A stretch of 64,000 nt of DNA from a virus (lineage: Duplodnaviria; Caudoviricetes): positions 64,001-128,000 of the IMG/VR virus record IMGVR_UViG_3300035498_000877, one strand, 5' to 3'. The notes below the pieces were generated by a model. The model ran no database searches, was not told where the DNA came from, and saw only the letters and a program-made list of their open reading frames with translations. The stretch's first letter is position 1. Each line of letters opens with the position of its first letter. Shown here piece by piece: positions 3,970-45,388 of this stretch. Made by a program: the position numbers and the translations under genes.

Positions 3970-5493
3970 CTAAGCTGTCTTTTTAGGTAAACATTTAGGA
4001 GAGCCGCCGTAGGCCCAGAACGAGGCAGAAACCACACCAGAGAGATCCACGCACACCAAGCCCACAGGAGACTCAACGCTCGTGTCGCCACCAAAGGCCG
4101 CGACATCTACTTGAGAGTTGTTAAACCAAGCTCCAGATGTATAATAAGTTGACGCACTACCAGATACCTCTTTAATGAATATACCATTTTCAGTAAATGT
4201 CATACTCTTTAGATAACCACCATTAGTACCAGATGGTGTAGAACCAATATTAATATATCCATCACCAGTAAAGTTATATCCTTCTACTGTACTACCATCT
4301 TCGGTACCATAAGTAAGTTTTACTAACTGAGTACCTTTATTATTTATTAATCCATACATCCATCTCCATATATTACCCCAGAAATTCTCAATACCAAATA
4401 TTTTAACACCTGATACATTATCTGTTGTACCCCAGAATAAACCTTTTTGATCCATAGTACCTGATTTAATTTGTCCAGTATTAGAAGTAGATTTATAAGA
4501 ATTATTATTACCTCTACCAAATGCTGTTTTAGAATCAGTAGTCTTGCTAATTAATAGTGATAATAGTACTATTAATAACCAATCACTATATGTATTCATA
4601 CTCCATATATTGTCACCATTTTGATTATTTGCAGCTGCATATTCAGCAGTCTGTGTTGCATTAATATAATTGGCTACTGATAAACCGCTGATAGATCTTA
4701 ATACACTATCTACATTACTACCATCATATGCTGGCATATACATATATGGTACTTCATCGCCATAATTGTTTATATGAGCCCATGCATGATAATTAGTATC
4801 TACTTGTTTATTTGATATATAAACATTTACACTATCATCTGTTTGTAATACAAGTTTAAAATATACCTTTGGTATACCAACCATTACATTACCTGCAACA
4901 GTAGTATCTGAATTATATGCATCCTCTCCACTAATAGTTTTAGTATAATCATTTGGATCTAATAGATATGCCTCAGTACCATCATAATTCAACATGCATG
5001 GTCTAAGATTCTTTATAAAGAATGCATTACCCCAATCACCATAATCAAATACATCATTATCATAATCCATATGTGCTGCAGTATAATTTGTATTTTGGCC
5101 AATATATGATATCATACTATTAGGATCAGATGTCGATTGATTAAGATTGAATCCATATATTTCAGCATCCCTAATAGTTACTGTTCCAGTGTTTGAATCA
5201 CTATTAACCTCGATTACCATTTTGCTAATTAAATCATTGAACATTGTAGAAATATAATCATCTAATCCCAAATTATCCCTACCAAATTGCTTCTCTTCAT
5301 CAGTCAAATTTTGTTCTTCTGTAACATCTAATGCTTTATAATTTTCCACATTATCCAATCCAATATCGGATTTAGTAATATTATGTGGATTTGATGCTTG
5401 TATATGTTTTTCTATTCTAGTCTTACTATCCTTTTTACTTAATTTAACTAAATCACGAATTGAATTGGTACCAATATACTTATTATTACTCAT
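3970..5493 (-). CDS. DGR target: fibre/receptor-binding protein with C-type-lectin-like C-terminus
   Basis: N-terminal NPHNITKSDIGLDNVEN fibre motif; GIENFWGNIWRW CLec/FGE-type motif; VR at the 3' end. Confidence 0.85.
   Translation of the reverse strand: MSNNKYIGTNSIRDLVKLSKKDSKTRIEKHIQASNPHNITKSDIGLDNVENYKALDVTEEQNLTDEEKQFGRDNLGLDDYISTMFNDLISKMVIEVNSDSNTGTVTIRDAEIYGFNLNQSTSDPNSMISYIGQNTNYTAAHMDYDNDVFDYGDWGNAFFIKNLRPCMLNYDGTEAYLLDPNDYTKTISGEDAYNSDTTVAGNVMVGIPKVYFKLVLQTDDSVNVYISNKQVDTNYHAWAHINNYGDEVPYMYMPAYDGSNVDSVLRSISGLSVANYINATQTAEYAAANNQNGDNIWSMNTYSDWLLIVLLSLLISKTTDSKTAFGRGNNNSYKSTSNTGQIKSGTMDQKGLFWGTTDNVSGVKIFGIENFWGNIWRWMYGLINNKGTQLVKLTYGTEDGSTVEGYNFTGDGYINIGSTPSGTNGGYLKSMTFTENGIFIKEVSGSASTYYTSGAWFNNSQVDVAAFGGDTSVESPVGLVCVDLSGVVSASFWAYGGSPKCLPKKTA
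3994..4103 (-). repeat. DGR variable repeat VR1
   Basis: Encodes AAFGGDTSVESPVGLVCVDLSGVVSASFWAYGGSPK; A-to-N substitutions relative to TR. Confidence 0.95.
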
Positions 5494-5563
5494 ATTAATA
5501 CCATTCCTTTCATAATTAAATATGTTTATATAGCTATTATAAAAATGTAGGATACATCTTTAC

Positions 5564-7804
5564 TCATTGATTATCTACATATTTAGCTAGTGCTGCACAT
5601 TCCAATAGTTTTAATTCATACAACTCATTATCATCTATTACCAATAAAGCCCAATCATCTGGTACATTATTTATCCTTGGTATAAGATTAAAAGATTCAT
5701 ATTTCAAATATAAATTATTCCAATAATAAACATTAGCTAGTGCCTCAGCAATCATTTGTATACATGTGAATGTTGCTTTCTTATTTGGAGTTCCAAATAC
5801 TGTATGACCTAAGGCTGAACATGAAGCACAATCATTTCCAATTGGACAATCAAAACAAATATCATTAGTCTGAGATCTTCTAGTAATTGAATCGAGTAAT
5901 TTTAATACTTCTGAATCTTGTTCTCGTCCAACTAACCCATCATCAATATTTCCAATGCATAGATCTTTAACATCATTTCCTACAGATGTTGGCATATACC
6001 TGATACATGGATAGAATTGTCCATTAGGTCTTAATGCTAACATTGATCCAGTACCTCCACAGAAATTAGAATCATTATGTTTTGCTTCTTTATCCTCCTG
6101 CTTCTCATTAAATATAGATATATAAATATGCTCTAGATTATTAGATATTAAATATCGAGCAAGTTTCTTTAATTGATAATACTCAGTAGCTGCAGTATCT
6201 CTAGTCCATCCTTCCTCAAATACACAATTCATATTTATACATTTCATGTCATTCTTAATAAAGTCTACTACTGAATCATATAAATACATTATATTAGATG
6301 GAGCTAATGTCATCTTAGAATTTCTTTCAGAAGTATAATTCTTATTATAATGATTTAATGCTGCTATATCAATATCATATGATCCTTCTCCATTAGGTTG
6401 TATTCTACAAGAATCATGCAATTGTTTATTTCCATCTATTGATATATTGAATGAAATATTATGTGCATATTCTTTGAAGAATTCTTGTACTTCATCATCA
6501 AAATATTGCATACCATTAGAGCATATAGATAATCTATGTAAAGCAAACCAAGGATGATTTAATTTATAACACTGATCCAAAAAATATTCATAGATCTGTT
6601 TAATCAATTCAATTTCCAATAATGGCTCTCCACCAATAAATTCAATAATAATTGCAGGTGAATTATATCTATTTATATATCCATATTTATCAGCTAATAG
6701 ATTATCTACGAACTTCTTTGCAGTATCAAATGACATTCTATCATTAGTCTTATTAAACTGATAGCAGTATGTACAATTATGGACCACTGCATTATTAGCA
6801 ATATATGTATGACAAGTAGTTGTTAGATTACAAACAGTTCCAGAATCACATGCTTCTAATTTTTCAATCATAACACTATTGCTGGGGACGATCTGAATAC
6901 GTTTATCTATCAAGAAAACAAATAAATCATTATCATCTATAATTTGTTTAAATGGTTTAAATTCTCCATTTGAAGTTAAGAATGGATGATCATCTGTAAC
7001 TCTAAATAATTCTCTTCCTGAAGACTTGTCCTTCACAATATTTAGTGGCTCATACATACGCCACATATTTGTCACTATATATGGCTTAAAGTATTTGAAG
7101 TCATGATATTTTTTAGCATCACTTTCATCAATACCTAAAATTTCATCTCCACAACTAATATCTTCTATATTCTTTTCTGTCCAGTCAGCCATCAGAATTT
7201 TAGTTCCCATAGCAAAACAATTCAAAGAACATCTTTCAGTTACTTGGAAAGTAAAATTATGACAGAATACATCAGCATCGTCACCGCATCCAACTTGATC
7301 TTGTCTTTTATTTGAAAATAATTCTGGATATGCTTTAGCAATTGCATTATTATATGAATCAGTAGTAAATCTGAAATACTGATCTGGAAATATATCTAAT
7401 ACATCATTATCTGGTATCAAATTATCAACTGTTTGTAAAAATTCAACATCATCAGATAATAGTAACATCTTATATTTGCAATACATTGTATCGATTTCTA
7501 CATTCTGGATCAACATATCTTTGATTGGCATATCATTATTTTTAGATACTGATTGCAAAATATCAATTGCTATATTAGAAAACATTGATCTGAGCTGCAT
7601 ACTAGATTCAGTAAATTCTTTTCTCAAATCCGGAATCTTATCTAAATCATAATTGTGTTTAACCATATATTTCATTCTAAACAATAATGCGTCAATTTCA
7701 AGTGATAATCTATCTAATCTGTAATCTTTGTATTTCTCTAATACAAATTTATCAAATTGAACTTTGTATAATGTAATATCTTTTTCTAATAAATGAGTTT
7801 TCAT
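5564..7804 (-). CDS. Radical SAM/SPASM peptide maturase (Cxxx-repeat-target type), intein-containing
   Basis: After intein removal TFQVTERCSLNCTYCY; FIGGEPLL, SIDG, FCGG..ML..G.FYPC and CFDC...C..C SPASM cysteines. Confidence 0.85.
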   Translation of the reverse strand: MKTHLLEKDITLYKVQFDKFVLEKYKDYRLDRLSLEIDALLFRMKYMVKHNYDLDKIPDLRKEFTESSMQLRSMFSNIAIDILQSVSKNNDMPIKDMLIQNVEIDTMYCKYKMLLLSDDVEFLQTVDNLIPDNDVLDIFPDQYFRFTTDSYNNAIAKAYPELFSNKRQDQVGCGDDADVFCHNFTFQVTERCSLNCFAMGTKILMADWTEKNIEDISCGDEILGIDESDAKKYHDFKYFKPYIVTNMWRMYEPLNIVKDKSSGRELFRVTDDHPFLTSNGEFKPFKQIIDDNDLFVFLIDKRIQIVPSNSVMIEKLEACDSGTVCNLTTTCHTYIANNAVVHNCTYCYQFNKTNDRMSFDTAKKFVDNLLADKYGYINRYNSPAIIIEFIGGEPLLEIELIKQIYEYFLDQCYKLNHPWFALHRLSICSNGMQYFDDEVQEFFKEYAHNISFNISIDGNKQLHDSCRIQPNGEGSYDIDIAALNHYNKNYTSERNSKMTLAPSNIMYLYDSVVDFIKNDMKCINMNCVFEEGWTRDTAATEYYQLKKLARYLISNNLEHIYISIFNEKQEDKEAKHNDSNFCGGTGSMLALRPNGQFYPCIRYMPTSVGNDVKDLCIGNIDDGLVGREQDSEVLKLLDSITRRSQTNDICFDCPIGNDCASCSALGHTVFGTPNKKATFTCIQMIAEALANVYYWNNLYLKYESFNLIPRINNVPDDWALLVIDDNELYELKLLECAALAKYVDNQ
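6776..7219 (-). mobile_element. Mini-intein (148 aa, no endonuclease domain)
   Basis: Starts CFAMGTKILMAD, block B TDDHPF, ends YIANNAVVHN followed by +1 Cys. Confidence 0.92.
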
Positions 7805-7898
7805 TTATAAATCCCTCCTATAACATATTAGAATGAACGTTGATTAATTCGACGATTAAAATAGAAGAGGGACTAATATCCCTCTTCTATATTTTAAT

Positions 7899-9461
7899 TT
7901 ACTGATTAGAATCTTCACTATCTTTATCTTCTGAACCAGATGTTTCATCAACTGCTTTATCTTCATTTGAATCATTATCATTTTTAGTAGGTTCAGTATC
8001 TACATCTTCATCCTCTTGACCAGATTCAGTATCTTTATCTGATTCATTTGAATCTGTATTATCTGTAGGATCAGTAGTTTCAGAATTATCTGCCTCTGAT
8101 GTATCTGGTACTTCAGTTTCTTTATTATCATCTTCATTATCAGATGAATTATCACTGTTATCTGTATCTCCTTCTGATGGAGTTTCAGGAATTTCACTTT
8201 CAATAGGTGGATTCAGTATTTCATTATTGTTGTATAAATCAGTCAACTTATTAATTGCATTATATATTCCATTAAGTTGGAATTTAATTGTATCAATTTC
8301 ATTTTTGAGTTGAATATCTCCATTCTGAAGCTTCATTATTTTTGAATCAAATTCTTCAAAATTGATATCCTGTTCTTTATTTGTAGAAGCTGCTGGTACT
8401 ACTGGGACATTTGTATTAATATTAGATACTACTTCATCAGTATTATCATAAGCATCTTCTAAGAATGGAACTTGTAATACTTTTGCTATCTCAGTTGTAT
8501 CATTAACTATCATACAATCATTCTTGAATATATTAATTCTGAATACAATTCTATGACCTGGGTTAATAACAAATCTTCTATTAACATGAATTACGCCACA
8601 TGGTAATAGAGCAATCTGAGCTCTTGGATCATTAATCTCCTGAGCATGTAATATAATATTATCACCTGACTGAGTAAAGTGATAGAATCTATTGAATGAT
8701 GACATCAATGGAGGTGATATCAAACCATTAGTAGTTAATGATTCAGGACCACCAATTCTTTGAACTCTCTGATGTTCATTGTGATAGTTCCAAATATTTT
8801 TATCATTACTAAATAAATATTCTGGTATTGGATTATAAGGAACTCCTTCTGGCCAAGCTTCTCTATAAGGTTGACATTGCTGAAGCTGTTTAGCTTTAGG
8901 AACATCAGCTCTTAATGTTTCATAGAATAACTGAACTTTAGTAATTCTAAATAACATCTGTTCCATACCATATGTGAAGCTGTTAACAGTACTAACCAAT
9001 GTGCTACTGAAGTTGGTTATAAGAGCATTATCATTAATATCTCTTCCATTAATGTCAAGATAATATTCCCTATCAAATATTCTGAGATCCTCTGACATCT
9101 TTCTTAATATTTGTCCAGTATGAGAGTTTTCTATCTGATAGTTTACTCGAACAATAATTCCTCTTCTGAGAGTATTAAACTGATGATTCATTGCATATCC
9201 ATAATTAGCAATTGTATTAACCAATCTCTTATACATAGAACTATTTCCTTCAACTGCCGGTAATGAAGTACTAGCCCTTCTACCTATATCATCAATATTA
9301 AGATCTATGATTGCTCTCATTGAATCTTCTTGATTGATTGATATTTCACTTTTAATTATAGATCTATCTATCTGTGGAAACTGTTCTTTATCAGCATACT
9401 CAGATAATAGATATGGTATTCCATTCACATCAACGAATACATTTGTATGTTTATCTGACAT
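7899..9461 (-). CDS. Hypothetical (likely virion) protein with coiled coil and long acidic tail
   Basis: 520-aa ORF, aggaga SD, D/E/S/T-rich C-terminus. Confidence 0.6.
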   Translation of the reverse strand: MSDKHTNVFVDVNGIPYLLSEYADKEQFPQIDRSIIKSEISINQEDSMRAIIDLNIDDIGRRASTSLPAVEGNSSMYKRLVNTIANYGYAMNHQFNTLRRGIIVRVNYQIENSHTGQILRKMSEDLRIFDREYYLDINGRDINDNALITNFSSTLVSTVNSFTYGMEQMLFRITKVQLFYETLRADVPKAKQLQQCQPYREAWPEGVPYNPIPEYLFSNDKNIWNYHNEHQRVQRIGGPESLTTNGLISPPLMSSFNRFYHFTQSGDNIILHAQEINDPRAQIALLPCGVIHVNRRFVINPGHRIVFRINIFKNDCMIVNDTTEIAKVLQVPFLEDAYDNTDEVVSNINTNVPVVPAASTNKEQDINFEEFDSKIMKLQNGDIQLKNEIDTIKFQLNGIYNAINKLTDLYNNNEILNPPIESEIPETPSEGDTDNSDNSSDNEDDNKETEVPDTSEADNSETTDPTDNTDSNESDKDTESGQEDEDVDTEPTKNDNDSNEDKAVDETSGSEDKDSEDSNQ

Positions 9462-9504
9462 AATTTTATTCTCCTTTCAAAAAATAAATATTGTTATATT
9501 GGGG

Positions 9505-10722: not shown

Positions 10723-10787
10723 TAATATCCCTCCTTTACTAAAGTATACTAATTAAATAGCGGTTTTTGAGTAAAAATAGGTGGACT

Positions 10788-21229: not shown

Positions 21230-23864
21230 TTATTTTTCTTCCATTAATTGATTTTCATCAAATTTTCTATAATTATCCCTTGGATCTTTTTCTACAATAA
21301 TATCCATGGGTTCATTTGTAACTCCATATACTTTTAACTTTCCTTCAGATGCATGATATAATGCATCTAATGTTTTGTTATATTCTTCTTCTGAATCACA
21401 TACTATTCTTAATGATTCCCAATCGTCATCTAATTTTTCTTCTTCCATATACTTGGCTATTTTATAATGCATTTCGTTTTCATATAATGAATCATCAAAA
21501 TACATTGATTTCATATCACAAAATGGTGACAACTCCCCTGACTGGCCCGGATCTGAGGCACTGCCTTGTGCAAGGTCTGTCCAACCGACCATAGATGGAT
21601 GTAATATACGTTGACGAATTGGGATTCTTCTAGTATCATTTCCTCCTAGTGAATTTGGCAATTATCTTCATATTAGTTCGCAACACTAATACAGTTCCTT
21701 TATGAACTTCTCATACTCTCGTATGACAATAACCTATCTCAAGGTTAAGGTGTGTTTCCACAGTTGAGACTATATCTTTACTATATTATCTTTTACCAAT
21801 GAATATAGTACCACTCGTTTCCCATTACTCTATTCCCTGTCAGGGTTTATAGCCCTCATTAGCTTAGGGGGTACTCTACTGACTACATTGTATAGGTTAT
21901 TAGTCCATATACGTAGTTGACCGATAGTCGTTGAACTTTGTATTATTTTATTTTCACATTTTACTATTTAAAACTAAAATTAATTATACCTAGCTGCCTG
22001 TGATTGTCTAATCCTAAATGATTTTACCATCCGATAGTCGTTATACTATCTGCTACACTGTATCAGCTGCGGTTATTTAGGCTATAAAGAGTTTCCGGCA
22101 ATTAGTAGTGGTAAGGCTCGTAAATTTACTGCTATGAGGCTAGTAATAGGCAACCTTTTTTAGTGTATGTAAGGAAGGAATGAAAATCCATATCTGAATT
22201 TGATTCTGCATATCTAAGAACTCCAGATGAATATAACTTTGTTAGAAAAATATCTTCCAATTATCTTCACATAATTTCGCATGCGGATTATGTAGTTCCC
22301 TTATGAACTTCTCCTACTTTCATAGGACAACATGTTATTTCAAACATGAGGTGCATTACTGCAGTTGTGACTATATCTTCTATTATATTCTATTACCAAA
22401 TATAACAGTCTCTCGTTTCCTTTTACATATAACCATTCCATTGTTATATAACCCAATTCTACTTGGTAAGTACTCTACTGACTATATTAGTACCGTATTT
22501 CTCGAATACTATAGTTGGTCGATAGTCGATGAACACTCATCTTTACAGATGATTAGCTGCGATGATTATCCCTATTCAATACCTTTTAACTATACCTTGA
22601 GATATTACCTCTTGCCATTTATTATATTTCTATAATAATTTAGTAGTATTGACTTAGCAGGAACTTCCCGCAATTATGAGAGAATCCCCAAAGAGATTTT
22701 AGGGAATCTGAAAAGTTTTAAATAATCAGATATAAGAGCTTTATCACCCAGACTTACTATACGATTAATTCGTTTTGATACTTCAGCAGTTACAAAACTT
22801 CCTAAGTACTCATTGCATCTTAATCGCTTATTCTCCATTGATAAATTATCTTTTGCCCATAGTTTATGATAATTCTGAATTATCCATCTAAGTAAATGAT
22901 AAATATCTTGTTTATCGTAATCATTGATCTTTAATTCTTTCTTAGATACATCATCAAGTAATCTATTAAAGAATATATGTTGATATACTCCTCTACGTAC
23001 AGTATTCTTTCCACCTACTATTATCATCCACTCTTCCCAATCATCTATCTTGTCATATGAGATTTTAGTTTCTTCAAATAGTTTTATTAGACATCCTACT
23101 ATAGATCTTACATAGATTTCTTTATCAAATATATTCTTCTTCACTATAACAACAATATCACTTTTCTTTCCGCAGTCAAATTTAATTATTTTATCTGAAT
23201 CAGGATAGTTTCCATCTTTCTTTCCAACATAAATAAATTTATCCACTTCCATAAATATCAATGTCTTTGTAATACCAAGATTCGAATATATCAATAATAC
23301 ATTAATTGCATTCTTGAATATCTGAATTGTATATATTGGAATTTGATATTCATTTCCTTTGGTATCTGTAAAGTTTTCCTTTATAGTCTTTACACATATT
23401 GGCATTAGTGATTTAATTGTTACAGCTCCAAATGATGGATATAACATTTTATCTACCATCTGGTATATTAAATAACATTTCTTTCCTTTTATCATACAAT
23501 AACCATTCTCATCTATCAGTGGGATTAGAATTGGTTTCGTTAGATAGTGAACCTTTAGTACTCCATCTTTATCATGGCCAGATACTTCAATGTTTAAATA
23601 CATTACTCCACATCTAGTTTCTGATATATTTTTGATGGCCTTATTCTTATTTGCATTTCTTCTGATAACATGATCATTTACATCATACTTATCTTCATCA
23701 GGCTCCCATTCATAGCTCAATATTTTTATATTGGGCAGAATTTCAAATCCTTTAAATGCATCGAATATGTACTCTTCCAATGGTTTATCATATGACTTTT
23801 GAATTAATCCAACATTTAAATTTTCTTTGTATGGATTGGGTAATTTATTAATATATTTCTTCAT
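21230..23864 (-). CDS. Phage RNA polymerase beta subunit, N-terminal part; 3 exons (22701-23864, 22153-22257, 21230-21658), 565 aa spliced
   Basis: Splicing gives ...LFRFP|EDIFLTKLYSSGVLRY...TYTKKG|PNSLGGND...RILHPSMVGWTDL..SASDPGQSG. GKKCYLIYQMVD and NKRLRCNEY are beta-like motifs. Confidence 0.85.
21659..22152 (-). ncRNA. Group I intron (494 nt, no ORF)
   Basis: 5' exon ends in U (GGU), intron ends in G; P aattgccggaaac, Q aatcacaggcagc, R gttcaacgacta, S aagatatagtc. Confidence 0.9.
22258..22700 (-). ncRNA. Group I intron (443 nt, no ORF)
   Basis: P1 ttcccU|aaa...ttgggga; P aattgcgggaa, Q aatcatcgcagc, R gttcatcgacta, S aagatatagtc; terminal G. Confidence 0.9.
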
Positions 23865-27937: not shown

Positions 27938-28576
27938 ATGATGGGAAAGGATTGTGAATCTCTATTATCAGGGATTACAAGTATAAAGAAATCATTAGAT
28001 GATGGGATAGTCAGTTTGGCTGGTGAGTTAGCTAGCTCTACAGTAGTAATTGATACATCAATAAGTGTGAATGAAGATTCACACAGTGGTACATTGAAAG
28101 TAGATGAAAAAGAAAAAACAGCTTCTTCATCATCATATTTCTCAGCTGTTCAATCAGCTATATCAGAAAGTAATACTGTTATTGGACAGATGAAAACATT
28201 AGGTAGTCAGATGTATGTATCAGAACCAGAAGGATTTAACAACTCATATGGAAGTCCATGGAAAGAAATTAATAGATTATCTTCTATATTAACATCAGTA
28301 GAAACATATGCAAATGCTCACTCTACCATGAAACATGTTGGTGAGAAAGCAGGATTAATAGGACTGATGTCTATGGCTGCATCTGCATGTGTAGACGCTA
28401 AGTGGGCATTAATAACATACAATGACTATGTACAGAGAGGGTTTGATACCAAATATAATAACAATACTCCTTCAATAACATTTGCTAGAACAAAAAATAG
28501 AAGAACCACTGGAAATATTACACAGCCCATATCAGAAAATGTACATATTGCTGATGAATCTACAGATCCGTATTAA
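27938..28576 (+). CDS. Hypothetical protein
   Basis: 212-aa ORF, aaggaggt SD. Confidence 0.6.
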   Translation: MMGKDCESLLSGITSIKKSLDDGIVSLAGELASSTVVIDTSISVNEDSHSGTLKVDEKEKTASSSSYFSAVQSAISESNTVIGQMKTLGSQMYVSEPEGFNNSYGSPWKEINRLSSILTSVETYANAHSTMKHVGEKAGLIGLMSMAASACVDAKWALITYNDYVQRGFDTKYNNNTPSITFARTKNRRTTGNITQPISENVHIADESTDPY

Positions 28577-28608
28577 TACAAAAAAGAAGAGGGATTTATA
28601 TCCCTCTT

Positions 28609-28995
28609 CTAATCTTGTTTTGCTTTATAGTACTTATACAATCCATAACTGTTTATCATATCTTCTTCTGTATCTAATGCTTTATTATAAATATTTTCAA
28701 GTTGATCTATTATATCATCTTCTCTTCTGTTTTCATATATACATTCATATCTAACTTTAGAGAGCTCGGTAGATGTCAGCTCAACTAAGTGCGTAATTAA
28801 TACTAGATATACATTGTATCGCTGAATCAATAATTCACAATACTTAGCTATTTCACTATTAGATGAGACATATAACATTGCTAAGTTCAGGTACTGTGTA
28901 TATTCCTGGATTAAACCAATTGATCTCTCAGATGAACTGGTTATTGCATCAATATTGTTTTTTAATACATCTAAATGCTCTTTGTATTGTTCCAT
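28609..28995 (-). CDS. Hypothetical protein (start MEQYKEH)
   Basis: aagggga SD precedes MEQYK; the longer start overlaps the upstream gene. Confidence 0.55.
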   Translation of the reverse strand: MEQYKEHLDVLKNNIDAITSSSERSIGLIQEYTQYLNLAMLYVSSNSEIAKYCELLIQRYNVYLVLITHLVELTSTELSKVRYECIYENRREDDIIDQLENIYNKALDTEEDMINSYGLYKYYKAKQD

Positions 28996-31414: not shown

Positions 31415-31590
31415 TTTTATTCCTCCATTTATATGAAAATAATATATTATTAAAAACAATGTATTTTCACAATACAAATTTTTAAATATTAAAAATATTA
31501 TAATTACATCTAATGGAATATGACATAATAGCCTAATATTTTTGATAAAATAACTTTATAACATTTTAAAAATAGAAGGGAGAAACTATT

Positions 31591-33298
31591 ATGAGCAATA
31601 AGTACTTGGGGGGGGGATTCCCAGATTAAAAGCCTAATACAAAATATAATAAAAAATGTACCACGTGAAGAATATAGTGGTGATGATATTAAAAAGATGC
31701 GAATGCAAACGTGTAAACATGAAAATCTAATATATCAATATAATAATGATGCAACATGTACTGAAGATGGTACTGAGGATGAGATATGTAATGAATGTGG
31801 ATATACAGAAACAAAAATTAAAGTAGGATCGGCTTTAGGTCATATTTATCCATCTGAGTGGACTATCAGTAAAGAAGCTACTTGTGAAGAAGATGGTATA
31901 AAAATAAAAGTATGTACTAGATGTGGTAACGATCAGATTACTGATACTATTTTTAAATTAGGGCATAGTTATCCTGATGATTGGACTATAGTAACACCAG
32001 CATCTTGTGAAGTTGAAGGACTTAAGAAAAAGAAATGTATTAGATGTGATAATGAAATAACAGAAGTTATACCAGCATTGGAACATACATGGTCTGATAA
32101 TGGAGATGGTACTCACACATGTATTACAGAAGGTGGATGTGGTACAACAGAAGAATGTAGCCCATCAGATCCAGGAACTACATGTGAAAAATGTGGATAT
32201 GAATTCGAAGATGTTGAATTAGCAATTACAACTACATCTATAGATGGTATGGTAATTGATACTGAGTATACTAAACAATTAGAAAAGAATATTGATAAAT
32301 CAGCTAAATGGTCTATTTCATCTGGATCATTGCCTGATGGAATATCATTGTCTGAAGATGGTATCATTAGTGGTACTCCTACTACATCTGGTATTTATAC
32401 ATTCATAGTTAAATGTGTATGTGGAACTCAGGAAGCTACTAAGGAATATAGCACATCGATTGCTAAGAGAATATTTACAGTTACATTCAATGCAATGGAT
32501 GGTGAATGTTCAGAAACTACAAGACAAATCGCTGATGGTAGTACAATTGGTGAATTACCAACTGCTAGTATGGATGGAATGGTATTCGGCGGATGGTTCA
32601 CAGCTGAAACATTAGGTATGCAAGTTGATGCTCAATATACTGTAACAGCTGATGTTACACTATATGCTAGATATGGTGAAGATAGTGGTATTGTATTTGG
32701 TGATGCAACTACAACATTCAATATTGCATATAATAATGATAGAACAAATTATCAAAATCAACCATATACATTATATAGTAGAAACCATGATGGTACTACA
32801 TCATCTAACATTGTATTCCAGACGGGAATTGCATGTGCTGATGGTACTGGATCTAATAACTTATCGGCTGATAATGATGAAGTTACATTGTATATCAAAG
32901 TAACTAATAATGGAACTGCCAACTCATTTGACTTTGGTTTCGATTGTGACTCTTATATTAATACAGATGAGGATCATCTTGATAATGTTATGATAACTCG
33001 TCTTGAGAATGGTGTTCAGTTATCTGATAAGATCCAAGTTACTGTACCATATACAATGACAGCATGGATCGGTAAATATAATAGTAGAACGTCTAATAGA
33101 TATAATGATGTTGCTGTTGGATATTCAGCTGGATATGGATCTACTGCTGGTGATATGGATACTGGTTATGCTCTTACAATGTATGATTTATTTATCAATA
33201 GTGGAGCATATATCATACTTGAAGTTACATTCAAATATATTGGTACTGGAACTACAGATTCTTCATCTAGTGGAAGTGATACAGGTAATAAATCATAA
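31591..33298 (+). CDS. Surface/fibre-like protein with Cys-His repeats, Ig-like domain and Listeria-Bacteroides repeat; frameshifted at a G9 tract (31608-31616)
   Basis: ATG 31591 with aaggga SD reads MSNKYLGGGFPD*. Removing one G gives MSNKYLGGDSQIKSLIQNI... in frame with 31697..33298. ATCTEDG..C..CG repeats, SGSLPDGISL..GTPT and VTFNA..G...F.GWFT motifs. Confidence 0.75.
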
Positions 33299-33308: not shown

Positions 33309-33340
33309 AATAGAAGAGGGAATTAATTCCCTCTTCTATT
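33309..33340. terminator. Bidirectional terminator
   Basis: aatagaagagggaattaattccctcttctatt palindrome between convergent genes. Confidence 0.75.
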
Positions 33341-33352
33341 ATAATTATTATT

Positions 33353-35353
33353 TTATTTTAATACTATCTTAACTATGTTATCAGATACTCTTTTAATTAC
33401 TCTATAACCACTATCTGATTTAGTAGCTATTGAATTATCATTACATTTACAATATCCATTTACTTCACATGTACCATCATCATATACAGCAAGTACACCA
33501 AGCATACCAATAGCACTCCATTCTGGTCTATCATCTCTTTGAATATAACCTTTATCTAGATCATAATCAGGATTTACTTTATAGAACTCTACTTCTACTT
33601 CCTGATCTACTTCTTCAATAGTGGTATTACCATTTTCATCTTTAATTTCCTGCGGTACTTTAATAGTTTGCATAGTTTTTTCTTTAATATATGCCCCAAA
33701 TTCATCTTTCATGAATTTACCTTGCCACTCAGTATCAGTATTACCAAGTACACATGGATTAGCAGATACTATTCCTAGTACCCAATCTCCTTCTTTGGCA
33801 AGTACAATTTTATCTTCAGATAATGTTACAAACTTTCCTCTTCTATCTTCATTATCTGGATTACCATCTAACCATTCGAAGTACTCTGCATAGTCAGCAC
33901 CAGTTGCAGAATATGCAGCTTGAGCATATGTCGCTCCATCATAATCGACTCTAAATGCATTACTATCACCAGCTGATGTACCGTTACCAATTACAAATGC
34001 AGTGCCACTAGTATCTTTAATAGTTCCTCCAGTTGCTAATTCTGGATCATTATAATGACCTTGTGCATGTTGATAGTCTTCAGCAATGGTATACCAACCT
34101 TCTGCGTGTGAAACACCGCCATTAGCTTTAGTAGCATATCCTTCTGCATGCGATTCTCCTCCAATTGATTGTGTCCCGTAACCTTCTGCATGCGAGTAAT
34201 TTCCTTTAGCTTTACCAAATCCTTCTGCATGTGAGTAATCACCAGATGCTGTGGTACTATTACCTTCAGCATGCGATCCAGGACCAGATGCAGTAGTATA
34301 ACCACCTTCAGCATGAGAACTATTTCCTGAAGCTACTGTAGTATCACCTTCAGCATGAGAACATAAACCACTGGCAATAGTACTTTCACCCTCAGCATGC
34401 GTACTATCCTTAGTAGCTGATGTAGTATTTCCTTCAGTGTGACTATAAGTACCAGATGCTGTAGTTTTATAACCCTCTGCATGTGATGCAGTACCAGTAG
34501 CAGTAGTACCTTCACCTTCTGCATGTGAGTAATCACCAGATGCACTTACCCAACCACTTTCTTTACCATATTCACATCCTGCGCCCTCGGCATGAGAACA
34601 TGAACCTGTTGCTTCAGTACGATATCCCTCAGCATGAGAGCAAGGATCTATTGTACTGGTATCATATCCTTCAGTATGAGAATAATCACCTGATGCATAA
34701 CTATATCCTTCTGAATGTGAATATTTACCCTTAGCCTCAGAATACAGTATATCTTCAGCACTAGATCCACCATCATCAAGATGTCCACCACCCTCAGCAT
34801 GAGAATAATCACCAGAAGCTTTAGTTAAAGTACCCTCAGCATGAGATCCTTTACCACTAGCTTTAGTACCAGATCCTTCTGCATGTGAGTAATCACCAGA
34901 CGCTTCTACATATATTAGAATTTCATCATTTATATTACGCATATATCCTTCGGCATGGGAACCTTCACCGCCAGCAATTGTATCTGCACCCTCGGCATGA
35001 GAATAATCACCTGATGCTGTAGTATTATTACCTTCAGCAGTAGAACAATCTCCAGCATCTGTTTCTTTTTTTCTTCCAAGATTTATTGAAGCATCACTGT
35101 ATATTGATAGTTTAGCATATTCATCATCAGCTCCAATATTGGTTCTGATATTATCCTTTTCTTCATCAGTAAGTTCTTGTACTTCAGTAGATACTGCTTT
35201 GTAATTCTCCACATTATCCAATCCAATTGTAGATTTAGTAATATTATGTGGATTTAATGTATCAATATGCTCTTGTAATTTATTATCAACATCCTGTTTG
35301 CTTACATCAATTAGAGTCTTTATTGAATTTTCACCAGCATATTTTTTGCTCAT
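33353..35353 (-). CDS. Tail fibre/spike with about 20 SHAEG (YadA/Hep-Hag-like) repeats and a C-terminal peptidase-G2-type intramolecular chaperone
   Basis: 14-aa SHAEG repeats; ADYAEYFEW...GIVSANP...RPEWSAIGMLG; N-terminus shared with the DGR target. Confidence 0.8.
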   Translation of the reverse strand: MSKKYAGENSIKTLIDVSKQDVDNKLQEHIDTLNPHNITKSTIGLDNVENYKAVSTEVQELTDEEKDNIRTNIGADDEYAKLSIYSDASINLGRKKETDAGDCSTAEGNNTTASGDYSHAEGADTIAGGEGSHAEGYMRNINDEILIYVEASGDYSHAEGSGTKASGKGSHAEGTLTKASGDYSHAEGGGHLDDGGSSAEDILYSEAKGKYSHSEGYSYASGDYSHTEGYDTSTIDPCSHAEGYRTEATGSCSHAEGAGCEYGKESGWVSASGDYSHAEGEGTTATGTASHAEGYKTTASGTYSHTEGNTTSATKDSTHAEGESTIASGLCSHAEGDTTVASGNSSHAEGGYTTASGPGSHAEGNSTTASGDYSHAEGFGKAKGNYSHAEGYGTQSIGGESHAEGYATKANGGVSHAEGWYTIAEDYQHAQGHYNDPELATGGTIKDTSGTAFVIGNGTSAGDSNAFRVDYDGATYAQAAYSATGADYAEYFEWLDGNPDNEDRRGKFVTLSEDKIVLAKEGDWVLGIVSANPCVLGNTDTEWQGKFMKDEFGAYIKEKTMQTIKVPQEIKDENGNTTIEEVDQEVEVEFYKVNPDYDLDKGYIQRDDRPEWSAIGMLGVLAVYDDGTCEVNGYCKCNDNSIATKSDSGYRVIKRVSDNIVKIVLK

Positions 35354-35445
35354 AATAGTATATCTCCTTTCTAGTATTTATTTTGTGTTATTTAATAACT
35401 AATAGAGCTTTATAAAATGGTAAAAAATAAAGAGAGGGATTAGTA
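35347..35445 (-). repeat. Copy of the shared fibre-gene leader (hairpin arm, promoter region, RBS, ATG)
   Basis: Near-identical to 43683-43781; the RBS-proximal part also matches 45309-45388. Confidence 0.9.
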
Positions 35446-35459
35446 CCCCTCTCTTTCAG

Positions 35460-35942
35460 TTATATTCCATCAATTTCCCCATTAAACATATTTTTGAGTG
35501 TATATATTGTAGTATCAATAATATATTGATTTATGTATTCTTTTGTATATATCAGATTTTCATAATCAATATTATTAAAATTAATATCATTCTTTACTAT
35601 AGTCACAGTATCACCAAGCATTCTCTTTAGATGTTCCTTAGTAATCTTTTCTAAATCATGATTATCTGAGAATGTTCTGTATTTAACAGTAGTTACTGAT
35701 GCTATAGCTTCTCTTATAGATTTCAATAATAATTCTGAATACTCTAATATCTCTTTATCTTTAATAATTTTTTCTTTAGAAGATTCCTCTAGTTTCTTTT
35801 TTTCTAGATTATATAATTCTTCCTCCTTATCCATTAATGCATGAATCTTAATAATAAGATGAATTAGTAATATTATTAGTAATAATATAAATGCTAATCC
35901 AGCATCCATGCATGCTGTATAAACATATTCAAGTGTTTCCAT
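35460..35942 (-). CDS. Hypothetical membrane-anchored protein
   Basis: N-terminal hydrophobic helix AGLAFILLLIILLIHLII; aaggag SD. Confidence 0.6.
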   Translation of the reverse strand: METLEYVYTACMDAGLAFILLLIILLIHLIIKIHALMDKEEELYNLEKKKLEESSKEKIIKDKEILEYSELLLKSIREAIASVTTVKYRTFSDNHDLEKITKEHLKRMLGDTVTIVKNDINFNNIDYENLIYTKEYINQYIIDTTIYTLKNMFNGEIDGI

Positions 35943-35957
35943 TTCACAGTCTCCTTT

Positions 35958-38900
35958 TTATTCATCTTCTAATCTAGCAAATTTTGATAAATTATTTTTG
36001 AATAGTTGGACAATATTATCAGTTAGATGCTTTTTCTTAAATGGTATATTGTCCATAACCCATTCCATCATCTCATCATAATCATTACCAATCTCATGAG
36101 GATGTAATTTCATCCATATTACATATGTTTTGATTAATTTATTCAGATAATAATATTCGGCTTTAGTACACAATATAGTTGCATCACCAAAACGATATTC
36201 ATTAACTATTTCTTCATCTTCTGCTTGTCCAATAAATTCATCTTCATCATCTATTGTTTGCATTTCAACACCTAATGATTTAAGATAAACTTGTAATATT
36301 TCAGATGTTCTAGAAGTAAATGAATCAGGAATATTATATTTATTATCATCTGATAAAATTGCTTCATACATATATTTTCTACCATCTACTGAAGATCTAT
36401 ATAATGCAGTAATTAATGCAAAGTCTTCTGGGTTAGTTATGATCATGAAGTTGGGCATTTCATATTCGCCGAACCTGATTGGTTTGCTAGAATACCAAGA
36501 TTTACCTATCTTATTTTCATGAGATTTCTCTGGTAATCCCTCATCAGATATTGATCCAGATGAACGTACTGAGAATCCCTTTTCACCTGATTGTTTTAAC
36601 ATCATCATATACTGATATCCAATATTATCACTACCTATATAGATATCTCTACCCCACTTTGGTTTAGGTACAAATATATGATATGGAGTGAATATATCAG
36701 GATATTTTTCATATACCTGAATAATCTTATCTCTCCATGTTTTATAATCAGGCTCTGAACTATCTTCAAATGCTTCCCATCTGATATATAATGTATCATC
36801 AGTTCTTAATGTACCATCTCTATTCAAATTAATGGTACTATCAATAAATTTAACTTTCTCTCGGTCTGATAATCCATCATAAATATTTTCAAATTCTTTA
36901 GCTTCTTTTTCATTAAGTATTTTCATGATATCAAATAAGAATTCTTTACGTTCTTCATTTGTTTCCAAAGTGGCAGCATGTTTTCTAGCAATGTCTTGTA
37001 TGTATGTAACACTACCTTCAAGCATAACCATTGGAATAGTTCTATTAATAATAGCTAGAGGATTTGTAATCATATCTACTCTTTCGATAATACCTTTTGG
37101 ATGTTTAACTCCATATTTATCTACAGTATATTCCCTAGTAAGATATGGCATTTCTTCATCTGCTCTAATCTGACAAATCACTGTTTTGTCATTTCCTTCA
37201 CATAGTTCGCAACACTATGCAGTTCTCTTATGAACTTCTCATACTCTCGTATGACAATAATCTATCTCAAGGTTAAGGTGTATTTCTACAGTTGAGACTA
37301 TATCTTTAGCTCATTTATATGAACAGAGCTAGGCTTTTCCAATTAAGGGAATTTCACCCGCTACCATTAGCTTGTAGCCGTACTCCTGTTGGCTTGTTAG
37401 GCCCGAGGGATAGTCGTTGAACTTCTTTATTTTGATATACTTTACATGCATAATGCATATGTTATAATTAATTGAATTATATGAAAACATTGATCTTGTA
37501 TCAAATTAATCTTCAATAAATTCGCTTTAATATGATCTATGATATAATGAGCAATTGAATTTACAAATAACATGATTGTTATAATAAGATATTTATCTTC
37601 ATTATGATAATTATAAATTACAATTGGTAGCATTATACAGAATGCCCATTGAAATGAATGCAAATATAATGCTATAATATAATCATATTGATATAAAGGT
37701 GATGGAGCATTTTCTTCCCACCACTTTTTCTGTTTCATAGATCCCATTAATCCTTGTAAGTTAAAATCAGCAAATATGTGCATAAATAACATTGCTGAGT
37801 ATACTATATATTTTGGAATAATCATAATATCACTTCCTTTCTTATTGGAAGTATATCAAAATAAATTTAGCTGCGGATCTTCTCTATTAACTACATTATT
37901 ACTATACCTAAGGCATTACCCTTCGCCATCATTATATTACTATAATGATTTAGTAGTGTTACTTTACAAGATTTGCCCGCAATTAACCTAGTTTTACATG
38001 GGCCAAAACATACATATGCTCCCATGTCGGCCTACGATCTTTCGGCCGATGATTGCTTGTTCTTTCTTACGTACTAAAATCTCTACCATCATATTAGAGA
38101 ATACATTATCATTATATGCCCATACTGCTTGAGTATCTAGATAATTCATTGCAATTCTCTTCCAATGATTAATATTTTTATGGATATTTTTACATCCCGA
38201 TTTCAGTATCTTATTGCATATTTTATATACCTTAGTATAGAACCATCTGCTGTCATTGTAATATTGAACAAGTTGTTTATTCACTTTATTAACTTTTATA
38301 TTGGAATTATTGCAATAGATATTGATATCAATTATTTCACCATCTGCATAGAATATTTGATCTGTTTGAGCATTGATGTGAGTAAGTGAAGAATCTCTGA
38401 GATCTGAAAACATTCTAGTCTCTTTAATGGTACGAGTAGCTGCCAATATACCATTATCTATTTTATCTCCAATATTAGGAAGTCCAATATAATCGTTATT
38501 ATCCTTCCCATATAAATTCAATAGAATCGTATTTTCATTGATTGGTATTGTAATAGATTTCACATTATTAGTCACCATTCGTTTTGCAAATGATTCTGAT
38601 ACTACAATAGCATCATCCTGTACAGCTGGATCAACCCCATACAATATTCTTCCATTAATACCAACTCCAACATTCATATCTTCATCATATGATGTAGATG
38701 CATATACTAATGTATCTTTGGATATAGTTTCACCAACTTCGCATTGATCCAGAAAATCATTATCATAAGCAAATCCAAAATTTTCTGTTAGATCCTCTAC
38801 CTCTTTGCGTTCCAATACAATATACTTATCTTCTTTCTCTGAATATAGAAAGTATAGTGCCATATAAGATTTACCTTTTAACAGTTCTTCATACTTCTTA

Positions 38901-39172
38901 GCAATATCAACTACTTTGTAGTCAGTATCGGCACGAAAATAATTTGAAGATTGCTCACCTATTAGATTCTCCTTACCATCAAAGAACATAGGAAATTCTG
39001 GATTATCAATTGCTAAATGTTGAACCTTATGTTTGATATTCATGGTAGATCTCATAACATTGTTACCACCAGGAAAATCTCCTTGACCAACTAAAGCTAA
39101 TCTTTTGTTACCTTTGAGCTCTTCATTTTTCTTTTGAAGTTCGTATATAAGGTTATACTTCTCTCTAGCCAT
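35958..39172 (-). CDS. Phage RNA polymerase beta subunit, C-terminal part; 2 exons (38020-39172, 35958-37189), about 794 aa
   Basis: RSTMNIKH, QDDAIVVSES, spliced GRKIVGRHGNKTVI...EEMPYL, ITNPLAIINR, GYQYMMMLKQ, PIRFGEYE. Confidence 0.9.
37190..38019 (-). ncRNA. Group I intron (830 nt) containing a non-endonuclease ORF
   Basis: P aattgcgggcaaa, Q agatccgcagc, R gttcaacgacta, S aagatatagtc; 3' region nearly identical to intron 21659-22152. Confidence 0.88.
37442..37825 (-). CDS. Intron-encoded DUF3307-like membrane protein
   Basis: HIFADFNLQ, H..QW, HYIIDHIK, DQCFH motifs with hydrophobic helices; own SD aaggaagtg. Confidence 0.75.
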   Translation of the reverse strand: MIIPKYIVYSAMLFMHIFADFNLQGLMGSMKQKKWWEENAPSPLYQYDYIIALYLHSFQWAFCIMLPIVIYNYHNEDKYLIITIMLFVNSIAHYIIDHIKANLLKINLIQDQCFHIIQLIITYALCM

Positions 39173-39318
39173 TTTACTTATTCCTCCTTTAAAAATGTTA
39201 ATAGTAATAGTTCTCACTTACCGAAAAAGAATATATAAATAAAAATAAATATAGATCCTTAATTTTTATTCACTTTTTACAGTTTCTATAATAATATTTA
39301 AGTAAAGGAGAGAATCTT

Positions 39319-42300: not shown

Positions 42301-42500
42301 GATCTCCTATGACATGTACTGGTCAAAAGATATGTTCTAAATGTGCTGGTAAACTATTCTATATGATAGGAGCTGAACATATTGGATTATTTGCAGTACA
42401 GATTTCACATGCTGATCTTAACTTGGCATTGAAAGCTAAACATGATGCATCAGTAAAACTTCATGTTTTTAATCCTGATGAAATCCTTGAGGATATTTAA
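39319..42500 (+). CDS. Phage RNA polymerase beta' subunit (catalytic); 2 exons (39319-40725, 41097-42500), 936 aa
   Basis: GILSNEIFG, PPAYRD, LLGKSVDYGTRSVI, SRYP; splicing restores GMG|ADYDGD; DCGT, RSPMTC, ICSKCAG. Confidence 0.92.
40726..41096 (+). ncRNA. Group I intron (371 nt) inside the catalytic DxDGD region
   Basis: P1 catgggU|...gctcatg with U.G pair; P10 aatcagt/gctgatt; P aactgccgggaa, Q aatcataggcagc, R gttcagagacta, S aagatatagtcc; terminal G. Confidence 0.92.
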
Positions 42501-42609
42501 TTATATATTATAATAGTAATGATATAGTCGGTATTATAAAAATATCGTCGGGTATACACTATGTCATTAAAAGTTATAACTTTAAATAAAAAGAAGGGAG
42601 CTCTCAAAC

Positions 42610-43389: not shown

Positions 43390-43411
43390 TTATTAAAGGA
43401 GATAAACATCA

Positions 43412-43666
43412 ATGGGAAAGACAGAAAAATTAACAGGTAAGGTTAAATGGTTCAATGAGCAGAAAGGATTTGGATACATCACAGCTGATGATGGAACAGA
43501 TTACTTTGTACATCGTTCAGGGATTAAGAAGGCTCATCCAAAGACAATTGTAGTATCAAATCTTGAAAAAGATGATGTTGTAGAATTTACAATTCAGGAT
43601 GCACCAAAGGGACCACAGGCAGTATCTGTTACAGTAGTAGATGATACTGATGAAGCTACAGAATAA
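43412..43666 (+). CDS. cspA: Cold-shock domain protein
   Basis: GKVKWFNEQKGFGYI, DYFVH, KGPQA. Confidence 0.9.
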   Translation: MGKTEKLTGKVKWFNEQKGFGYITADDGTDYFVHRSGIKKAHPKTIVVSNLEKDDVVEFTIQDAPKGPQAVSVTVVDDTDEATE

Positions 43667-43701
43667 TAATATAAGGGAGGGATACTAATCCCTCTCTTTA
43701 T

Positions 43702-43796
43702 TTTTTACCAATAAATAAAGCTCTATTAGTTATTAAATAACACAAAATAAATACTAGAAAGGAGATATACTATTATGAGCAAGAAGTACTTGGGGG
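43702..43796 (+). repeat. 95-bp inverted repeat, left arm
   Basis: Perfect reverse complement of 45294-45388. Confidence 0.92.
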
Positions 43797-45136
43797 GGGG
43801 TTCATTAAAATCCCTAATACAAACTATATTAACAACATTTCCAACAAGTGAAATTACTGAAGATGAAATAAATGATATGTACTATCCACCAAATGTATAT
43901 GGTTTTAGTATAGATCAAACAGCAACCAACTCAGATAGTGCTATATCATATATTGGGCAGAATGTAAATTATACTGCAGCACAAAAGACAGATGCTTACG
44001 TATTTGATTATGGGGATTGGAAAGATGCATTCTTTATAAAGAATCTTAGACCATGTATGTTGAATTATGATGGTACTGAGGCATATCTATTAGATCCAAA
44101 TGATTATAGTAAGAAATTAGATAGTACTGATTCAGATATAGATAATAGTGATTTTGCTGGAAATGTAATGGTAGGAATACCAAAAGTATATTTTAAGATA
44201 GTTAAAGTGGATGATGATCATATCAATTTTTATTTTTCAGATAAGAAAGTAGATGATAACTATCATTGTTGGGCTCATATAAATAACTATGGTGATGAAG
44301 TACCATATTATTATTTATCAATATATTTTGGGCAACTTATTGATGGAAAAATAAGATCATTTTATAATTCTAATGGACGTGAAACTAATTTTAACTTCGA
44401 TACAGGTATAAATGATTCTGGTATAGTTGATTATTATGAAAAAGGTAACAATATTAAAGATTATGCTATGGCAAATAATATAAATGGTAATAATATTTGG
44501 GGTTTAGAAACATATAGTAGTTGGTTATTAATCACGTTATTGTCTATTTTGATATTTAAGGATTCTGATATATCGGATATATATCGTCCATTTGGTTCAA
44601 CATGCATCTGGGGTAATTATCCAAAACTTATTAATGGATTTTTATTTAATATTCAGAATAGACAATTTCTAGTAAAACTTACATATGGTACTCAAGATGG
44701 TAGTACTGTAGAAGGATATAATTTTGCTGGAGATGGATATATTGAAGGCCCTATATTATCTTCTGCATTTGATCACCAAGATGACTGCAATAATACATAT
44801 TGTACTGCTCATGTTAACACTGACTATGGAGTTGATATAGGAATAACCGGTCGAGTGTCAAAAATGAAATTCACTGAGCAAGGTATTATGTTTCCAGTGG
44901 AAAGTATGCACTTTGAAGATGATACTGCGTATCGTTTTACAATATTTGCAGAATATGGTGATGTGTATGGTGACCCAATTACAGATAGAAATACGTTATA
45001 TTGTCTCGCTAATGGAAATTGCGCACTTAGCAGTAACGAAAAAATACCATATAATATGATATTTATTGGGAGTATATTTACTAATTTTTATTGTAAAACA
45101 TCTTTAATTTGTCTACCAAAAATCCAGACAAAATAA
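43775..45136 (+). CDS. Paralog of the DGR target protein; G9 tract at 43792-43800 (in frame)
   Basis: Shares YIGQN.NYTAA, FFIKNLRPCMLNYDGTEAYLLDPNDY, VKLTYGT.DGSTVEGYNF and terminal CLPK with 3970..5493. Confidence 0.85.
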   Translation: MSKKYLGGGSLKSLIQTILTTFPTSEITEDEINDMYYPPNVYGFSIDQTATNSDSAISYIGQNVNYTAAQKTDAYVFDYGDWKDAFFIKNLRPCMLNYDGTEAYLLDPNDYSKKLDSTDSDIDNSDFAGNVMVGIPKVYFKIVKVDDDHINFYFSDKKVDDNYHCWAHINNYGDEVPYYYLSIYFGQLIDGKIRSFYNSNGRETNFNFDTGINDSGIVDYYEKGNNIKDYAMANNINGNNIWGLETYSSWLLITLLSILIFKDSDISDIYRPFGSTCIWGNYPKLINGFLFNIQNRQFLVKLTYGTQDGSTVEGYNFAGDGYIEGPILSSAFDHQDDCNNTYCTAHVNTDYGVDIGITGRVSKMKFTEQGIMFPVESMHFEDDTAYRFTIFAEYGDVYGDPITDRNTLYCLANGNCALSSNEKIPYNMIFIGSIFTNFYCKTSLICLPKIQTK

Positions 45137-45148
45137 ATAATATAATAT

Positions 45149-45175
45149 TAGAAGAGGGATTTAATCCCTCTTCTA
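45149..45175. terminator. Bidirectional hairpin between the paralog and the VR2 remnant
   Basis: tagaagagggat-tta-atccctcttcta. Confidence 0.7.
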
Positions 45176-45191
45176 TATTTTTATTGATCTA

Positions 45192-45315
45192 TTAACTAAC
45201 TGATTTGGGTAGACATTTAGGAGAGCCGCCGCAGGGCCAGCCCGAGCTAGAAACCACAACACCGAGAACCACGCACAACAAGCCCACACGACGCCCCCAA
45301 GTACTTCTTGCTCAT
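45192..45315 (-). pseudogene. Internally deleted DGR target: MSKKYLG start fused out of frame to a VR copy (VR2, 45216-45296)
   Basis: VR frame reads RVGLLCVVLGVVVSSSGWPCGGSPKCLPKSVS*; 62/75 identity to TR over 45216-45290. Confidence 0.85.
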
Positions 45316-45388
45316 AATAGTATATCTCCTTTCTAGTATTTATTTTGTGTTATTTAATAACTAATAGAGCTTTATTTATTGGTAAAAA
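45294..45388 (-). repeat. 95-bp inverted repeat, right arm
   Basis: Perfect reverse complement of 43702-43796. Confidence 0.92.

Follow-up and report, generated by a model that had tools for sequence, protein, structure and literature searches.

Why should genes scattered along a viral genome begin with nearly the same few residues, and often with nearly the same upstream DNA, while their downstream parts differ so widely? This question is raised by a 64,000-nt stretch of phage DNA (the window), which comprises bases 64001-128000 of the 289,234-bp IMG/VR virus record IMGVR_UViG_3300035498_000877, complete per CheckV. A window coordinate is the genome coordinate minus 64000, and names of the form gN give genome coordinates. 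The window has a G+C content of about 30%. Among its products are several split beta/beta' fragments of RNA polymerase, a GroEL and structural proteins of the virion, and it therefore belongs to a phiKZ-like jumbo phage. We consider it probable that the genes in question form a dispersed family of paralogous receptor-binding proteins (tail fibres or tail spikes) that is diversified in three ways, by switching at poly-G tracts, by a diversity-generating retroelement (DGR) and by shuffling of modules.

The sequence-only reading that preceded this analysis had listed five starts in the window with a common motif. All five lie where it placed them and four of them open real genes, but the fifth, at 45315, is a relic. 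A genome-wide search for the peptide and its leader, which that reading had named as a check, revealed a family larger than the window, with the N-terminal peptide (N-peptide) on nine genes when the relic is counted, plus one fibre gene with another N-terminus. Two further copies of the upstream leader of class A, further poly-G genes and further lectin-head paralogues were found outside the window. The nine genes are as follows.

g21359, (+) strand: leader A, G9 in frame, lectin head.
g69493, window 3970-5493, (-) strand: P0001, 507 aa; leader C, no poly-G tract, N-peptide MSNNKYIGTNSIRDLV, NPHNITK linker, C-type-lectin head, DGR target.
g95591, window 31591-33298, (+) strand: leader B, N-peptide, G9 at 31608-31616 out of frame, Cys-His repeats, Flg_new, CARDB-like match.
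g99353, window 33353-35353, (-) strand: P0002, 666 aa; leader A, no poly-G tract, N-peptide MSKKYAGENSIKTLI, NPHNITK linker, YadA-like SHAEG repeats, Peptidase_G2.
g107775, window 43775-45136, (+) strand: P0003, 453 aa; leader A, N-peptide, G9 at 43792-43800 in frame, lectin head.
g109315, window 45315, (-) strand: leader A, G5, relic only.
g167685, (+) strand: leader C, no poly-G tract, NPHNITK linker, lectin head; split by a frameshift away from any homopolymer.
g260826, (+) strand: leader B, G10 out of frame, SHAEG repeats, Peptidase_G2.
g281598, (+) strand: leader A, G11 out of frame, lectin head.

The tenth fibre gene runs across the contig ends; it carries Cys-His repeats and a lectin head, and its N-peptide is replaced by a different N-terminus.

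By homology, the family proteins are of fibre or spike type. All four lectin bodies scanned match phrog_5302 'tail protein' (P0001 with E 1e-77), and phrog_4775 pre-neck appendage is also among the family's PHROG matches. From an alignment of 51 sequences, AlphaFold2 modelled P0001 with a predicted local distance difference test score (pLDDT) of about 97 over residues 110-507. The best PDB fold matches of this model, found with Foldseek, were two variable proteins of DGRs, TaqVP (E 2.5e-11) and the receptor-binding protein Mtd of BPP-1 (E 2.5e-4), followed by formylglycine-generating enzymes and TvpA, and on this model the head is a C-type-lectin fold. P0002 and g260826 both end in a Peptidase_G2 intramolecular-chaperone domain (IMC; PF11962; E 7.7e-40 and 2.9e-40, above the curated cut-off). 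The sequence of P0002 matches the phi29 gp12 pre-neck appendage chaperone domain in the PDB (3gqh, 3suc), and its repeats weakly match the trimeric autotransporter adhesin BpaC. The 31591 protein contains Flg_new (Listeria-Bacteroides repeat) and a weak CARDB match after its Cys-His repeats, and a sequence search of the PDB with this protein gave no match. The payloads that had been described earlier as SHAEG beta-roll, Ig/Cys-His repeats and lectin are borne out as SHAEG repeats with Peptidase_G2 in the gene at 35353, Cys-His repeats with Flg_new in that at 31591, and lectin bodies matching phrog_5302 in those at 5493 and 43775.

The N-peptide has the consensus M-S-(N/K)-K-[YF]-x-G-x-x-S-[IL]-[KR]-x-L-[IV] and spans about 16 residues. 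The motif that follows the tract was found at 16 sites when the genome was translated in six frames, and six of these are N-termini of family members. Among 121 proteins, comprising the family's own and the search hits, a loosely similar motif stands at the N-terminus of ten, four of which are the genome's own paralogues; those from other contigs are P0008, P0014, P0021, P0026, P0034, P0039 and P0094. The loose motif had no match elsewhere in the 121 proteins (62,098 residues).

Upstream of the N-peptide, three leader classes occur genome-wide: A with five copies, B with two and C with two. Three copies of leader A are 100% identical over 95 nt and the other two are 95% and 94% identical. The near-identical leader that had been noticed at three starts in the window was recovered, with 43702-43796 and 45294-45388 as 100% identical inverted copies of 95 nt and 35340-35426 at 94%. 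The leaders and hairpins next to the family genes in the window are these.

31478-31590, (+) strand: leader class B, about 110 nt, with its second copy upstream of g260826.
35354-35456, (-) strand: leader A copy, 94% identical to the others, with a terminator hairpin upstream (35429-35456).
43673-43774, (+) strand: terminator hairpin at 43673-43698 and leader A at 43702-43774.
45149-45175, no strand assigned: bidirectional terminator hairpin between P0003 and the relic.

Each in-window family gene is bounded by strong terminator hairpins, and the presence of terminators on both sides suggests that each gene draws its promoter and ribosome-binding site from its own leader. Leader A contains the 8-mer ATAAATAA, which stands upstream of 19 of 222 open reading frames (ORFs) against 2.5 expected (about 7-fold) and may be a phage promoter element. 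A sigma-70 promoter scan gave nothing above shuffled expectation, as expected because the phage has its own RNA polymerases. The hairpins belong to a family with the stem AGAGGGA / TCCCTCT and an AT loop of 3-8 nt, often bidirectional, that delimits single-gene cassettes throughout the window (534-574, 2002-2050, 7860-7908, 28576-28630, 33309-33357, 35421-35461, 43664-43704 and 45149-45175).

Leader and N-peptide could together be merely a copied cassette for expression and switching, spread by gene conversion, with the fibres attaching by other parts or by adaptors. Full identity of leader-A copies over 95 nt, beside bodies with about 55-60% protein identity, is typical of homogenization at the DNA level. 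The peptide is far shorter than known fibre anchor domains, its residues 1-20 have a pLDDT below 50 in the AlphaFold2 monomer model of P0001, and a fibre gene with Cys-His repeats and a lectin head exists with a completely different N-terminus. We nevertheless regard this explanation as unlikely. The N-peptide is kept as a protein across three leader classes that differ in DNA, with many synonymous changes; P0002 and P0003 have 10 of their first 15 residues in common, with six synonymous codon differences. It is also present in P0001 and P0002, which have no G-run, and is therefore not a mere by-product of the switch. The segment S-[IL]-[KR]-x-L-[IV] after the tract is conserved although the switch does not need it, and the loose motif occurs in homologues on other contigs that encode no Gly-Gly-Gly at this site.

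Conservation of the N-peptide despite synonymous divergence argues for a function at the protein level, and by analogy with other fibres virion attachment is the most natural candidate role. We give about an even chance to the peptide being a shared docking element. Docking of all heads through this one peptide is counted against by the contig-end fibre gene, which is without it. If the N-peptide is the attachment element, it would be a minimal tag that could explain the exchange of very different heads on one particle, and the engineering of receptor-binding proteins could make practical use of it; poly-G contingency loci would then also not be confined to Campylobacter phages.

The G-x-x codons of the N-peptide are also the site of the poly-G tracts. 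Genome-wide, runs of G or C numbered 19 at length 5, two at length 6, one at length 7, none at length 8, three at length 9, one at length 10 and one at length 11. All five G9-G11 runs form codons 7-9 of the N-peptide, and five runs of at least 9 in a genome where 0.018 are expected, all at the same family codons, are more than chance. GGG is the rarest Gly codon (4.3%). Two of the five tracts keep the frame and three break it, the open frames behind the latter extending for 421, 426 and 560 codons. At 31591 on the (+) strand, MSNKYL is followed by G9 and a stop after 12 codons, and a tract of G8 or G11 would give the 560-codon frame that runs to 33298. Since two tracts are in frame at once, expression of one head at a time is not indicated. 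Tract lengths could be compared across samples to a small extent, as most contigs end at the repeated leaders and one alone was informative: contig L035, from Joint Genome Institute (JGI) sample 3300035497, has G10 where the g21359 locus has G9, with no mismatch and this one gap in 4182 nt. Poly-G switching, as earlier proposed, is supported on the level of sequence by five tracts at one codon position, a mixture of ON and OFF states and one G9/G10 difference between assemblies. At L033:1-14 (sample 3300035495), a garbled GC-rich string stands where the G11 tract of g281598 belongs, and homopolymer calls at contig ends are unreliable.

The out-of-frame genes might instead be decaying pseudogenes, or the lengths of the G-runs sequencing or assembly errors, so that no functional switching takes place. 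Gene decay does occur in this family, as in the frameshift of g167685 away from any homopolymer and the dead relic at 45315; short reads are error-prone at G homopolymers; and the two in-window tracts are invariant among the assemblies read. We hold this to be quite improbable, because the out-of-frame tracts lead into long open frames that contain no further stop, because five paralogues have their tracts at one and the same position, spelt in the rarest Gly codon, in a genome with no other long G/C run, and because exactly one G separates assemblies that are otherwise identical over 4.2 kb. In addition, slippage of this kind is reported to have been experimentally established in Campylobacter phages (cited below).

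The split gene g167685 (167685-169186) changes frame at about 167950-167965, where there is no homopolymer or slippery site, and is probably a pseudogene or an imprecise recombination joint. Programmed ribosomal frameshifting was ruled out there, as a slippery heptamer is absent at the frame change.

A second source of variation, retroelement mutagenesis, would by its signature act on P0001. The elements are a reverse transcriptase (RT), a template repeat (TR) and a variable repeat (VR).

2036-3199, (-) strand: DGR RT, 387 aa, RVT_1 E 8.6e-17, phrog_1423 E 2.5e-94.
3376-3485, (-) strand: TR, 110 nt with 22 adenines.
3994-4103, (-) strand: VR1, encoding the C-terminus of the 5493 gene.

This is the only RT in the genome; its translation contains a GxxxSQ-type motif and FMDD, and it was assigned to the DGR type by profile match and motif. 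Over 110 nt, TR and VR1 differ at 13 positions, all 13 of them at TR adenines. An RT adjoining a TR, adenine-only mismatches and a VR in the C-terminus of a protein with a predicted C-type-lectin fold together point to a DGR, and this adenine-specific signature supports, on the level of sequence, the earlier claim that one family member undergoes DGR mutagenesis. There are six lectin-head paralogues in the genome, and a TR match was found only in P0001 and in the relic; in the lectin C-terminus of P0003 it is gone. Directly upstream of the target gene, at 5564-7804 on the (-) strand, lies a 746-aa radical-SAM-type protein with Hint or intein-like matches at residues of about 195-283.

Switch and retroelement may once have met at the fifth start, which consists of two parts.

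45216-45291, (-) strand: VR2, 76 nt of a VR copy truncated at its 5' end, in a different frame from the ATG at 45315.
45294-45388, (-) strand: leader A with the first 22 coding bases, ending in G5; 100% identical inverted copy.

Leader A and its 22 coding bases run straight into the 3' part of the VR, and only 22 codons are open from 45315 on the (-) strand. VR2 differs from the TR at eight of 11 adenines and at five other positions. We read this, from its sequence, as the remains of a lectin-head paralogue that was formerly a DGR target and whose body was deleted, with one end of the deletion in the G-run. It suggests that a former member had both the switch and a VR, so that a single gene may once have been subject to phase variation as well as retroelement mutagenesis. 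One possible source of the five non-adenine differences between the TR (3376-3451) and VR2 is that an older TR served as template for VR2. The perfect 95-nt inverted repeat (43702-43796 and 45294-45388), which flanks a fibre gene and the remnant of a second fibre C-terminus, might be taken for an invertible host-range segment of the Mu Gin or P1 Cin type, particularly as contig L021 links two oppositely oriented fibre genes as they would stand after inversion, but we rejected invertase-driven inversion as highly improbable, since no serine or tyrosine recombinase (Resolvase and Phage_integrase families) was detected in the 289-kb genome, both arms hold the whole leader and start codon so that inversion recreates the same two products, and the right-hand partner is an out-of-frame relic of 22 codons.

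The third source of variation is the exchange of modules. The NPHNITK N-module that had been reported as common to the genes at 5493 and 35353 spans 169 nt at 72% identity (5329-5497 and 35192-35360). The near-identical lectin-body DNA of 5493 and 43775 extends over 122 nt at 91% (4940-5061 and 43991-44112) and covers the patch of about 80 bp first described. Among the lectin paralogues, such 91% patches stand within DNA that is roughly 70-75% identical. The 4940-5061 patch on the (-) strand appears to be a tract of recombination or gene conversion, and it is the apparent crossover site of a chimeric contig. This contig (L036, from another sample) is 100% identical to P0003 for its first 345 nt or so and then 100% identical to g21359, and in a second (L021, also from another sample) the 31591 gene contributes its 5' half and the contig-end gene its lectin head, with about 256 nt common to both at the joint. 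Module exchange shows most clearly in the fact that nearly every combination of leader class, linker and head is represented. That they combine almost independently across the ten genes supports, on the level of sequence, the module shuffling earlier proposed.

Taken together, these observations would fit the following course of events. Each gene is a self-contained cassette made of a terminator hairpin, a leader of 30-110 nt with a strong Shine-Dalgarno sequence, the coding sequence and a terminator. The N-peptide is followed by a linker (the NPHNITK module, a TTFPTSEI segment or Cys-His repeats) and then by one of three heads, namely a C-type lectin, a run of YadA-like repeats that ends in an autocleaving chaperone, or a Flg_new/Ig-like part. 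Replication slippage would alter the length of the G9-G11 tract in five genes and so put the head in or out of frame, giving each virus lineage a heritable but reversible subset of heads. In one lectin head, the DGR would rewrite the C-terminus by adenine-specific transfer from TR to VR with the aid of the RT. Homologous recombination or gene conversion at shared leaders, at the N-peptide and at body patches would re-assort the modules, and the same process would keep three leader copies 100% identical. The sequence itself shows the family, the tracts with their frame states, a single difference in tract length between assemblies, the DGR signature and the mosaic pattern. From these we infer a place for the proteins on the virion, their attachment there by the N-peptide and an effect of tract length on host range. 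The sequence-only reading had joined module shuffling, poly-G switching and DGR mutagenesis into one host-range system whose heads compete for a single docking site; the three processes were found on one family at the sequence level, and competition for the site would be a further step.

Several points weigh against the interpretation as a diversified receptor-binding family. The virion location of the proteins and their binding to a host are deduced from homology and predicted fold. A word-indexed search of 5.8 billion proteins with residues 1-90 returned only the genome's own paralogues. The tract at 43792 is G9 in two further assemblies and that at 31608 is G9 in one, from another sample; the sole difference in tract length, at g21359, lies outside the window, and the length of a G homopolymer is prone to sequencing error in short-read assemblies. 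The P0001 protein, VR included, is identical on five contigs, of which three, from three samples, were read, as consensus only. No Avd (PF05635) was found in any frame of the genome, nor an Avd-sized ORF between target and TR; Avd is not universal among DGRs, and membership of this class therefore stands. Contigs L021 and L036 may have arisen by true recombination or by misassembly over repeats of about 60-256 nt, and in the latter case they would not speak for recombination.

A combinatorial host-range generator, in which a portable cassette of leader, docking peptide and poly-G tract is joined to any head while the DGR tunes one of them, is a possibility that we put forward tentatively and rate below an even chance. 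If it is true, five independent switches would allow up to 32 fibre sets per genome. DGRs, poly-G tracts, invertible segments and mosaic recombination are usually discussed singly, and here three processes bear on one family.

Both contig ends (genome 1-2254 and 287943-289234) lie inside the tenth fibre gene. In another sample, the locus L021:1972-2015 supplies 44 nt that bridge these ends and restore the reading frame, and the full-length product on record has 726 aa (P0125). With both ends inside one gene and 44 nt restoring its frame, the genome is probably circular or circularly permuted, and its assembly probably broke at a repeat. Searches for relatives found none in INPHARED by megablast of 20 kb. 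The exact leader and tract patterns were unmatched in IMG/VR and in JGI metagenome contigs, the genome's own records excluded, and a search for related loci gave relatives at 29-49% identity only. Elsewhere in the window, a repeat family of 92 nt (74-93% identity) occurs at 21689-21780, 22290-22381 and 37217-37308, and one copy sits within a split gene for the RNA-polymerase beta subunit, between its halves at 35958-37181 and 37994-39217. An ORF of 1593 aa at 57223-62004 on the (-) strand contains four 78-nt repeats in tandem (57587-57898); it has no PHROG match and adjoins a protein with tail-fibre matches (62020-63999). Rfam and tRNA scans of the window found nothing.

How does this family compare with known systems? 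Its switch most resembles that of the Fletchervirus phages of Campylobacter, whose genes for receptor-binding proteins contain hypermutable poly-G tracts (Sorensen et al. 2021, Cell Rep 35:109214, cited in PMC10579305 and PMC10877375). In both, a G homopolymer lies in the coding sequence of host-recognition genes, its length sets the frame, there are several per genome, and tract length differs between otherwise identical genomes (here at g21359 only); the likeness in receptor-binding role is drawn from homology and fold. Unlike in Fletchervirus, the five tracts stand at the same codons of one N-peptide, in front of three unrelated head types, and the tract travels with a copied leader; the phage is a 289-kb phiKZ-like jumbo phage, in which one family member is also a DGR target.

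The retroelement is of the kind known from the Bordetella phage BPP-1, with Mtd, TR, bRT and Avd (Liu et al. 2002, Science 295:2091, cited in PMC10579305). As in BPP-1, TaqVP and TvpA, the RT adjoins the TR, a protein of C-type-lectin fold carries the VR in its C-terminus and mismatches fall at TR adenines, and the predicted fold of P0001 matches 5vf4, 1yu1 and 2y3c in the comparison with DGR variable proteins. Unlike in BPP-1, no Avd was detected, the target is one of six lectin-head paralogues, and its N-peptide is common to the poly-G genes.

The heads ending in Peptidase_G2 IMC (P0002 and g260826) resemble phi29 gp12 and endosialidase-type fibres, and differ from gp12 in having a YadA-like shaft of SHAEG repeats and, at the N-terminus, the family peptide instead of the gp12 anchor. 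Phages with many receptor-binding proteins, such as the Klebsiella jumbo phage phiKp24 and the Agtrevirus phages with their tail spikes, reportedly have mostly clustered genes, whole-domain anchors and constitutive expression. Like them, the present phage encodes many host-recognition proteins with conserved N-termini, divergent C-terminal heads and mosaic exchange; unlike in them, single-gene cassettes lie scattered across 289 kb, what they share at the N-terminus amounts to about 16 residues, and half of the genes are gated by slippage tracts. The inverted repeat differs from Mu Gin, P1 Cin and shufflons in that no invertase match accompanies it and that it includes the leader and start codon. 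The components are of known kinds, and what is new is their combination around a portable leader, N-peptide and poly-G cassette in a jumbo phage.

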